DNA of 64,000 bases. Source: Candidatus Saccharimonadia bacterium. Lineage in GTDB: Bacteria > Patescibacteriota > Saccharimonadia > UBA4664. The position numbers and the translations under genes were made by a program. How positions within the stretch are numbered: position 1 is the first letter of the stretch; each line of letters begins with the position of its first letter. The notes beneath the pieces are model-generated. The model was given only the letters and a program-made list of their open reading frames with translations. It ran no database searches and was not told where the DNA came from. Shown here piece after piece: positions 21,253 to 22,347 of the stretch. The stretch spans positions 65,010 through 129,009 of the forward strand of contig DATIIV010000012.1 in the NCBI GenBank assembly GCA_035479295.1. Direction: 5' to 3'.

Positions 21253-22347
21253 ATGAAAAAACTGACCATAAAATTAATGCTGGCCCAGCTGCTAGCCATC
21301 GGTTCGCTGATGGTGGCCGGTCTTGGCACCGCCTCGGCCGCCACGCCCAATGCAGCGGCTGCGCTTAAGGCTACGCCCAGCGCCCCCGCGGCCGACCGCA
21401 ATGCGCTGCTCGCCCCCAGCCTAGCCAAGCCCCACGCGGTGGCCTCGCCGGCTATCACCTACACCGTGAGTCTAACTGCCAGCTCGACCTCGCTCTGGCC
21501 CACGCAGTACACCACGCTAACTGCCACCACCAACTCCAACGTCGGCCCGACGCCGTACTACCTGGAGATCTTCGACGCCAGCACCGGCGGCTCGGTGGCC
21601 ATCTGTGGCACCGGCACTACCTGTAGCGCCTCGGTAACGCAGACGGCTGCCACCACCCACTACTACCGGGCGTATGTGGCGTACTACTCGACCACCAATC
21701 CGCCGACCGGCATTCAGGCCGCCAGCGGCTACGTGGGTGTCACTTGGAAGAGCGTGGGCGTTACGCTGAGCGTTAATCCCAGCACCGTCAACGTGGGCGC
21801 CAGCAGCACGCTGAGCACCGTGACCACGGCCGACATCGGCCCCAGCCCGTTCTGGACTCAGATCTTTGACCTCAACACCGGCGCTCGTGTGGGCGTGTGT
21901 GGCTTTGGCACCACTTGCTCGGCTACGGTGAGCCAATCGGTGGCCACCACGCACAAGTTCGTGGCCTACGTGGCCAGCTACGGCACCAGCCTGCCGCTAG
22001 CTAATGTGCAAGCTACCTCGCTGGCCAACTATGTGACCTGGTCGAACGCCGGCTACCGCCTAAGCCTCACGACCACGCGCACCAGCGTTGGCCACGACAC
22101 CGTGACGGCTACGAGCAACATCAACGTTGGCCCGACGCCTTGGTACATCGAGATTTTTAACGTCAACACCGGCGCCCGCATCGCGGTCTGTGGCTTTGGT
22201 ACCACCTGCTCGGCCAATGTGGCGTTGAACTACGGTGCCAACAACTTCGTGGCCTTCACCTCGTCGTACGACACGGCGCTGCCGCCGGCCAACATCCAGG
22301 CCAGCTCCAAGGTAGTGACGGACAACTACTTCATCTTCATTCCGTAA
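21253..22347 (+). CDS. Secreted protein built from three ~97-aa repeats each with a conserved Cys pair
   Basis: Signal peptide MKKLTIKLMLAQLLAIGSLMVAGLGTASA. The motif NVGPTPYYLEIFDxxTGxxVAxCGxGTTCSAxV recurs three times. AGGAG RBS. Confidence 0.7.
   Translation: MKKLTIKLMLAQLLAIGSLMVAGLGTASAATPNAAAALKATPSAPAADRNALLAPSLAKPHAVASPAITYTVSLTASSTSLWPTQYTTLTATTNSNVGPTPYYLEIFDASTGGSVAICGTGTTCSASVTQTAATTHYYRAYVAYYSTTNPPTGIQAASGYVGVTWKSVGVTLSVNPSTVNVGASSTLSTVTTADIGPSPFWTQIFDLNTGARVGVCGFGTTCSATVSQSVATTHKFVAYVASYGTSLPLANVQATSLANYVTWSNAGYRLSLTTTRTSVGHDTVTATSNINVGPTPWYIEIFNVNTGARIAVCGFGTTCSANVALNYGANNFVAFTSSYDTALPPANIQASSKVVTDNYFIFIP

Follow-up and report, generated by a model that had tools for sequence, protein, structure and literature searches.

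Within a 64,000-nucleotide stretch of Candidatus Saccharimonadia DNA (contig DATIIV010000012.1; hereafter the window), we analyzed the gene at 21253-22347 on the + strand, whose product is predicted to be an exported protein made of three immunoglobulin-like (Ig-like) repeats. The predicted fold is the usual one of bacterial Ig-like modules, and by sequence the protein belongs to a distinct family with more than a thousand cluster representatives. We consider the chances about even that it serves as an extracellular Ig-like binding or presentation module, with a ligand that is probably part of the cell envelope.

Translation confirmed the existence and extent of the open reading frame (ORF), which encodes 364 aa laid out as a signal peptide, a 39-aa linker and three repeats of 98-100 aa. 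Read by eye, the N-terminus consists of MKKLTIK, an 18-residue hydrophobic core and TASA/AT (the slash marks the putative cleavage site). On inspection this is an n-h-c signal peptide with an AxA cleavage site, from which the protein is predicted to be Sec-exported, leaving a mature product of ~34 kDa. Secretion behind a signal peptide had been proposed in an earlier reading of the stretch made without database searches (the sequence-only reading), and the homologues bear it out. A hydrophobic, signal-like N-terminal segment is present in 169 of the 178 full-length three-repeat homologues, and ~12 of these 178 have a lipobox instead. In an alignment of 48 homologues, the linker carries a conserved Lys/Pro motif, with K39 and P45 found in at least 90% of the sequences and K59 invariant. 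This motif is retained also in the lipoprotein-type homologues and is a possible docking or cross-linking site.

The three repeats are 39.8-45.3% identical in pairwise comparisons, and repeat-against-repeat Smith-Waterman scores are 208-218, versus 32-38 ± 6-7 for shuffled sequences (z = 25-30). A hidden Markov model (HMM) of the single-repeat family matched the protein exactly three times (i-Evalues of 1.5e-42, 9.7e-37 and 1e-36) and found no further copies elsewhere in the window. The motif CG[TF]GTTCS occurs once per repeat, and its six Cys are all the Cys of the protein. These six residues are invariant across the 48 homologues, and exactly three C-x5-C motifs occur in 167 of the 178 full-length three-repeat homologues. 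Both the three repeats and the invariant CGxGTTCS Cys pair described by the sequence-only reading were thus recovered. The central x of the C-x5-C loop varies with the position of the repeat (T/S in repeat 1, F/S in repeat 2 and S/T in repeat 3). More generally, the family has the signature TLTAT-x-[ND]-x-[DN]VGP[TS]P[YFW][YW]-x-x-I[FY]D ... CGxGT[TS]C ... VTW, its loop motifs LWP and GPTPYY are near-invariant, and identities across phyla are 45-57%. Orthologous repeats of different species are 52-58% identical, versus 37-42% for paralogous repeats. Because the orthologous repeats are the closer ones, the three-domain protein appears to be old and conserved, with a triplication that preceded its spread.

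Two other assignments of the repeat were considered and rejected. There is no conserved Lys/Asn(Asp)/Glu set inside the repeats, as an isopeptide or pilin-type domain would have. The motif I-F-N-x-x-T-G-x-x-x-x-x-C-G-x-G-T-x-C (22189-22260, aa 297-325, with an equivalent in repeat 1) weakly resembles the active site of diaminopimelate epimerase (DapF), with E-values of 0.21 (NCBIfam) and ~2 (DapF in the PDB). We judged this likeness, like a match to AcrIIA2 in the same range (E 0.2-2), to be due to chance.

The sequence-only reading had called for a structure prediction, and we ran AlphaFold2 (AF2) on the whole window protein with the 48-sequence alignment. The resulting model is confident (mean pLDDT of 89.7, pTM of 0.81) and contains three all-beta domains, each with seven strands and separated from its neighbour by a linker of ~4 residues. 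In repeat 1, for instance, the strands span residues 72-76, 87-93, 103-108, 113-118, 123-128, 134-143 and 161-165. As modeled, the domains belong to the Ig-like beta-sandwich fold class (bacterial Ig/FN3-like). In the model, one strand ends at C118, C216 or C313; a G-x-G-T turn follows, and C124, C222 or C319 lies where the next strand begins. Because the Cys are invariant and sited at the end and start of adjacent strands, a disulfide staple is the natural reading: C-x5-C most likely forms a cross-strand disulfide that staples the hairpin and would stabilize the domain outside the cell.

Superpositions of two domains on ICAM-1 D1-D2 (118-123 residues, 3.4-3.6 Å) and on intimin D0-D1 (145 residues, 4.4 Å) suggest that the predicted domains pack end to end, and the pTM of 0.81 argues that their relative positions are defined in the model. 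Since the linkers are only ~4 residues long, the three domains probably form a rigid, roughly end-to-end array. An obligate pseudo-threefold unit in the style of 3xSLH or 3xCWB2 was rejected, given that relatives have 2-9 repeats and that the two-domain superpositions fit end-to-end Ig arrays. When the whole model was compared by Foldseek, only tandem Ig/MG arrays were retrieved, with TM-scores of 0.19-0.30 in the PDB and 0.17-0.36 in BFVD. Because these scores are low, we conclude that the three-domain arrangement has no counterpart among the PDB or BFVD (viral) structures.

Searches of Pfam, NCBIfam, PHROGs, PADLOC and PDB sequences, with the single sequence and with the 48-sequence profile, returned nothing above threshold. 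The Big_x, fn3, PKD and TIG families in Pfam gave no match to the window protein at E ≤ 10 and none to the 48 homologues at E ≤ 0.01. A signal came from a single curated family, Pfam DUF7467 (PF24269), at 18.7 bits (E 0.0031) against a gathering cut-off of 27 bits, so by the Pfam rule the window protein is not a member. DUF7467 matches 13 of the 48 homologues at E < 0.01 (best 5.7e-6) and is pre-annotated on four of the 120 top homologues, and the window protein is likely homologous to it, judging from these scores. We found no papers mentioning DUF7467 in the literature searched. That the domain was not recognized by the sequence-only reading is fair insofar as no curated family claims it, but it is a marginal relative of DUF7467 and has an Ig-like fold class. 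The same reading had named a match to a well-known Ig-like or carbohydrate-binding module (CBM) family of assigned function as the outcome that would count against a novel module. We found a match to the fold class, and none to a family or a function.

A word-indexed search retrieved >260 homologues, nearly all labelled hypothetical; most are 360-400 aa long and 45-69% identical to the window protein, and one is 95% identical. Exactly three repeats are present in 210 of 265 retrieved proteins, and the remainder have 1-9. The metagenome search that the sequence-only reading had proposed was carried out with the family profile, exhaustively, over 1.84 billion cluster representatives (clusters at 50% identity). 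The family comprises 1,099 cluster representatives at E ≤ 1e-3, or 839 at E ≤ 1e-10, and its clusters are mostly of soil metagenome origin.

Some longer relatives join the repeats to other extracellular modules. In one type, the signal peptide is followed directly by 5-8 repeats, DUF6531, RHS and a C-terminal toxin domain, which may be Gln_amidase (glutamine deamidase), a YwqJ-like deaminase or DUF6883. Other fusion partners are fn3 arrays ending in the DNase NucA/NucB, and bacterial TSP3 repeats. Across the fusion proteins the repeat count is 2-9. Among 39 mid-sized relatives, five have a C-terminal Rv2525c_GlyHyd-like domain, two have PASTA and one has CBM_5_12. Named sources of the fusion proteins include Angustibacter (Actinomycetota) and metagenome-assembled genomes (MAGs) of Chloroflexota and Dehalococcoidia. 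The Rhs-toxin arrays come from Actinomycetota and metagenome contigs, and one Rv2525c-like cluster includes members from a Chloroflexota MAG. A comparative-genomic framework for polymorphic toxins (PMC3482391) assigns secretion or anchorage and adhesion or presentation to the N-terminal and central domains. The stretch from the signal peptide to the RHS repeats falls under anchorage, adhesion or presentation, and bacterial Ig domains have been noted in it. The fusions firmly place the domain in an extracellular, cell-envelope-directed toolkit.

The window itself comes from soil Saccharibacteria, which are ultra-small epibionts. For its F1 ATP synthase beta subunit, the identity to proteins named Candidatus Saccharibacteria/Saccharimonadia is 83-86% (marker genes at 59866-61266 and 62129-63676, both on the - strand), and Saccharibacteria loci give the best matches to several window genes. 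Its GC content is ~59%, versus 0.48-0.57 in the Saccharibacteria loci compared. The identical three-repeat protein is found on two metagenome contigs (SRR9179560 and SRR9179562). A survey with one genome per GTDB species found relatives in no fewer than 12 MAGs or genomes of Saccharibacteria, one of them the complete genome CP025011, and in many Actinomycetota (Streptosporangiaceae, Frankia, Dactylosporangium, Actinocrinis, Acidimicrobiales and Solirubrobacterales). Relatives also occur in Myxococcota (Kofleriaceae and Hyalangium) and in single MAGs labelled Melainabacteria, Chloroflexia and Limnocylindrales. Saccharibacteria loci have one copy each; two or three paralogous copies occur in Actinocrinis SMAG_U6358 (L023, L025 and L043) and Kofleriaceae SMAG_U5747 (L031 and L036).

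In a neighbor-joining (NJ) tree, the saccharibacterial sequences and the window protein form one clade (96 of 100 bootstraps), and the deeper nodes have 44-51%. Identities of the window protein are 51-68% with the copies of other Saccharibacteria and 50-56% with those of Actinomycetota. Such a pattern is what one would expect from inter-phylum transfer and not from vertical descent. A recent horizontal transfer was rejected on composition, as the GC content of the gene follows the local GC in every lineage.

The protein most likely acts by binding, because it has neither an effector nor a recognizable anchor and yet is conserved, with near-invariant loops. A cell-envelope polymer is the leading ligand candidate because relatives accompany PASTA, Rv2525c-like and CBM5/12 domains and Rhs toxins. 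In the mechanism that we propose, the protein would be exported by Sec and its signal peptide cleaved. The three Ig-like domains would then fold outside the cell, each with its hairpin disulfide, as a short rigid array, and the stand-alone protein would itself bind a conserved extracellular ligand, either a cell-envelope polymer or a surface protein. The envelope targeted would be that of the Saccharibacteria epibiont itself or that of its (probably actinobacterial) host. Several observations weigh against this mechanism. The Ig-like arrays of large fusion proteins may be mere spacers, so that the fusions by themselves are no proof of intrinsic binding. We found no ligand or partner for the repeat protein, no match to a CBM or adhesin family by Pfam or fold comparison, and no conserved gene neighbourhood or operon partner across 64 genome loci and the window (1,019 clustered ORFs). 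As for retention at the surface, the window protein has no SLH or CWB2 domain by Pfam and no LPXTG motif or signal-peptide Cys in its sequence, so that it does not qualify as an S-layer or wall-anchored surface protein; lipoboxes are present in some relatives. The Cys pair is also missing in a few members of the family (P0261, P0231 and P0251), and the staple is thus dispensable for the fold. The binding or adhesion module suggested by the sequence-only reading is still the best-supported guess, on account of the fusion partners. It is, at most likely, a surface-binding module of a known fold class and nothing radically new.

The protein could also be passive and structural, that is, a rigid spacer or stalk domain whose three-repeat form makes up a surface coat or an S-layer-like component. 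The 2-9 repeats in fusions are typical of stalks, and among the Foldseek matches are SbsB, an S-layer protein, and tandem MG/Ig arrays, at a TMq of only 0.2-0.3. High expression, as expected of a coat, would be compatible with the monocistronic gene, its strong Shine-Dalgarno sequence and hairpins, and its GC content at third codon positions (GC3) of 0.82; however, the excess over the window mean (0.71 ± 0.09) is only ~1.3 standard deviations. We find a coat or stalk unlikely, because a spacer with both ends free has no obvious role and because anchoring domains such as SLH and CWB2 are absent from the window protein. Its occurrence in filamentous Actinomycetota and as a myxobacterial-type lipoprotein is not an S-layer pattern, and the cross-phylum identity together with the near-invariant GPTPYY and LWP motifs argues for a specific interaction. 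Another possibility is a three-headed inhibitor: every domain would present its disulfide-closed C-G-x-G-T-T-C loop much like a canonical inhibitor loop and block a hydrolase (protease or muramidase) that competitors, prey or hosts secrete. Conservation is highest in the C-x5-C loop, whose central residue varies with repeat position, and a gene for a secreted TAP-like peptidase lies just upstream in the window. The protein is also small, exported, stand-alone and sometimes lipid-anchored, as are inhibitors of the MliC/PliC type. We nevertheless regard inhibition as quite improbable. Neither sequence nor fold searches gave any similarity to an inhibitor family, the four-residue Gly/Thr turn is more simply a tight beta-turn, and the Cys pair is not universal. 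Moreover, the peptidase neighbour is not kept at other loci, and the 5-8 N-terminal copies in Rhs toxins and the glycoside-hydrolase-like partners fit an inhibitor poorly.

A more specific form of the binding hypothesis concerns the host. Cultured Saccharibacteria are epibionts of Actinomycetota, the phylum of their known hosts (PMC13622651), and the gene could have come from Actinomycetota to serve now in recognition of, or attachment to, the host cell wall, as a determinant of host range. The Saccharibacteria origin of the window and the monophyly of the saccharibacterial homologues are consistent with this possibility. So is the fact that copies from Streptosporangiaceae and other Actinomycetota are as similar to the window protein as those from Saccharibacteria, and that Actinomycetota and Chloroflexota have relatives joined to toxin modules and to modules related to the cell wall. 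However, the tree, with its weak deeper nodes, does not fix the direction or the partner of a transfer, the composition is fully ameliorated in every lineage so that no recent transfer is visible, and the gene was seen in only the 12 or more Saccharibacteria species genomes noted above. A 2026 preprint on how Actinomycetota sense Saccharibacteria mentions a sensor with 14 Ig repeats, which is unrelated to the window protein. In full, the hypothesis is that soil Saccharibacteria possess a factor for recognizing or attaching to the host, which they obtained in a single event from Actinomycetota or have in common with them and whose Ig-like domains bind an actinobacterial wall polymer, the same module preceding Rhs toxins or adjoining glycoside-hydrolase-like domains in Actinomycetota and Chloroflexota. 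We hold this to be rather doubtful in the general case and, when spelled out in full, no less so.

The repeat gene looks like a monocistronic, stand-alone unit, and here the independent unit suggested by the sequence-only reading holds up: the gene is preceded by its own Shine-Dalgarno sequence and an AT-rich leader, is bracketed by hairpins and lacks conserved neighbours (Table 1). The two perfect hairpin terminators and the lower-GC promoter region of that reading hold only in part. Both hairpins are stable and the downstream one is perfect, but the upstream one (12-nt arms, 92% complementary as DNA; -28 kcal/mol, z -5.07) includes one G.U pair. The T-tails are weak, with 3-5 T per 8-10 nt: CTTTGCTTGG of the upstream hairpin is only moderately T-rich, and CGCGTTTGCG of the downstream hairpin is T-poor. 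Unlike the upstream hairpin, the downstream one was not called in the terminator scan. The upstream hairpin is a putative terminator, likely that of the alpha/beta-hydrolase gene, and would shield the repeat gene from read-through. As for the promoter region, the GC content of the upstream intergenic sequence is indeed low (0.44 overall and 0.40 past the hairpin, versus 0.59 in the window), but a promoter scan found no sigma-70-like promoter on the + strand upstream of the gene.

Table 1. Features of the three-repeat gene and its flanks (window positions; aa, residues of the protein)
Feature	Position	Strand	Description
Upstream hairpin	21043-21072	+	35 nt past the alpha/beta-hydrolase stop; in the scan, 13 pairs, 8 GC, loop of 4; tail CTTTGCTTGG
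AT-rich leader, putative promoter region	21073-21252	+	GC 0.40; Shine-Dalgarno AGGAG at 21241-21245, 7 nt before ATG
Signal peptide, Sec-type (predicted)	21253-21339	+	aa 1-29; MKKLTIK, hydrophobic core, TASA/AT; pLDDT <50
Ala/Pro-rich linker with conserved Lys/Pro motif	21340-21456	+	aa 30-68; motif from the 48-homologue alignment; pLDDT 70-78
Repeat 1, Ig-like beta-sandwich (predicted)	21457-21756	+	aa 69-168; invariant LWP (81-83); CGTGTTCS at aa 118-125, nt 21604-21627
Repeat 2, Ig-like beta-sandwich (predicted)	21757-22050	+	aa 169-266; CGFGTTCS at aa 216-223, nt 21898-21921
Repeat 3 and stop codon	22051-22347	+	aa 267-364; CGFGTTCS at aa 313-320, nt 22189-22212; hydrophobic C-terminus ...YFIFIP
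Downstream hairpin, candidate terminator	22373-22398	+	26 nt past the stop; 11 perfect pairs, 4-nt loop; -27 kcal/mol, z -5.6

A hydrophobic C-terminal ending of the ...IIP/IIG kind is frequent across the family. Around the gene, the only recurring neighbours were Ser/Thr kinases (12 loci) and histidine kinases (7 loci), at variable distance and orientation; they are likely the background of these genomes. Ser/Thr kinases lie within 10 kb of the gene in 12 of the 64 loci. Two Saccharibacteria MAGs encode, next to the three-repeat gene and divergent from it, a Ser/Thr protein kinase of ~780 aa whose extracellular region is large (L002, 7518-9878, - strand; L006, 7535-9871, - strand). The window also encodes an ECF-type sigma factor and a putative anti-sigma factor (14708-15331 and 15337-15981, both on the + strand). 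The orthologous pair (68% and 46% identity) of the closest relative, L001, lies at 8415-9620, directly upstream of the three-repeat gene, whereas in the window the pair is ~5.3 kb upstream, with other genes intervening at 16054-21008. This contrast may reflect control of the repeat gene by the ECF factor, or an insertion. As the adjacency was found only in L001, we rejected the link.

The sequence-only reading had noted secreted glycanases and peptidases elsewhere in this genome, and our annotation agrees: the window encodes a GH5 cellulase with fn3, the TAP-like peptidase just upstream (an alpha/beta-hydrolase) and papain-like peptidases. The cellulase gene (27260-29428, - strand) adjoins a pair encoding a PAS histidine kinase and a response regulator (25090-27165, - strand), and, if the annotation is correct, it would be a notable polysaccharide-degrading capacity for a Saccharibacterium. 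Two paralogous genes (31316-32113 and 39659-40444, both on the - strand), the first annotated as a papain-like cysteine peptidase (Peptidase_C1), are 67% and 58% identical to one same gene in the Saccharibacteria locus L021. The gene at 11998-13263 (+ strand) combines an SBP_bac_3 / Lig_chan-Glu_bd solute-binding domain with a ligand-gated ion channel domain. By these domains, its putative product resembles a prokaryotic GluR0-like glutamate-receptor channel, here within a reduced epibiont genome.

These results define a large exported domain family that lacked curated functional annotation, recognizable by a clear signature and confidently predicted in fold, and connect the stand-alone protein with the arrays at the N-terminus of Rhs toxins and with Rv2525c-like proteins. 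As an annotation it is useful: a new Big-like domain related to a DUF, in a field where tandem Ig-like extracellular modules are already known. The points of most value are the sharing of the family between Saccharibacteria and Actinomycetota and its tie to Sec-secreted Rhs toxins. If the domain binds a cell-wall component, this would explain the targeting of these Sec-secreted toxins and enzymes. Such binding would also make the protein a candidate for host attachment in environmental Saccharibacteria, about whose host-recognition molecules little is known. If the protein recognizes hosts, it would give a handle for predicting or testing host range in uncultured Patescibacteria.

Among known systems, tandem Big and FN3-like domains such as intimin/invasin D0-D1, the Fn3-like modules of CbhA and the B1 Ig domain of CelAly (PDB 9kvu) share the fold class, but their identity to the window protein is at most 20%. 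The window family differs from them by its own signature (TLTAT..[DN]VGP[TS]PYY.I[FY]D), its CGxGT[TS]C hairpin staple and its terminal VTW. DUF7467, a Pfam domain without assigned function, matches the strand-loop region as far as the CGxGTTC motif. Its boundaries are offset, however, so that the match spans the junction of repeats 1 and 2 (aa 157-225), and its score is under the gathering threshold for most of the family as well as for the window protein. The Sec-secreted Rhs/YD polymorphic toxins offer a parallel in architecture, as relatives of the window domain hold their N-terminal anchoring/adhesion slot. Bacillus subtilis WapA carries three wall-binding repeats at the same position, but these have a different fold from the window repeats. 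The window protein has no DUF6531, RHS or toxin domain by Pfam, and it differs from the Rhs/YD toxins in being the module alone.

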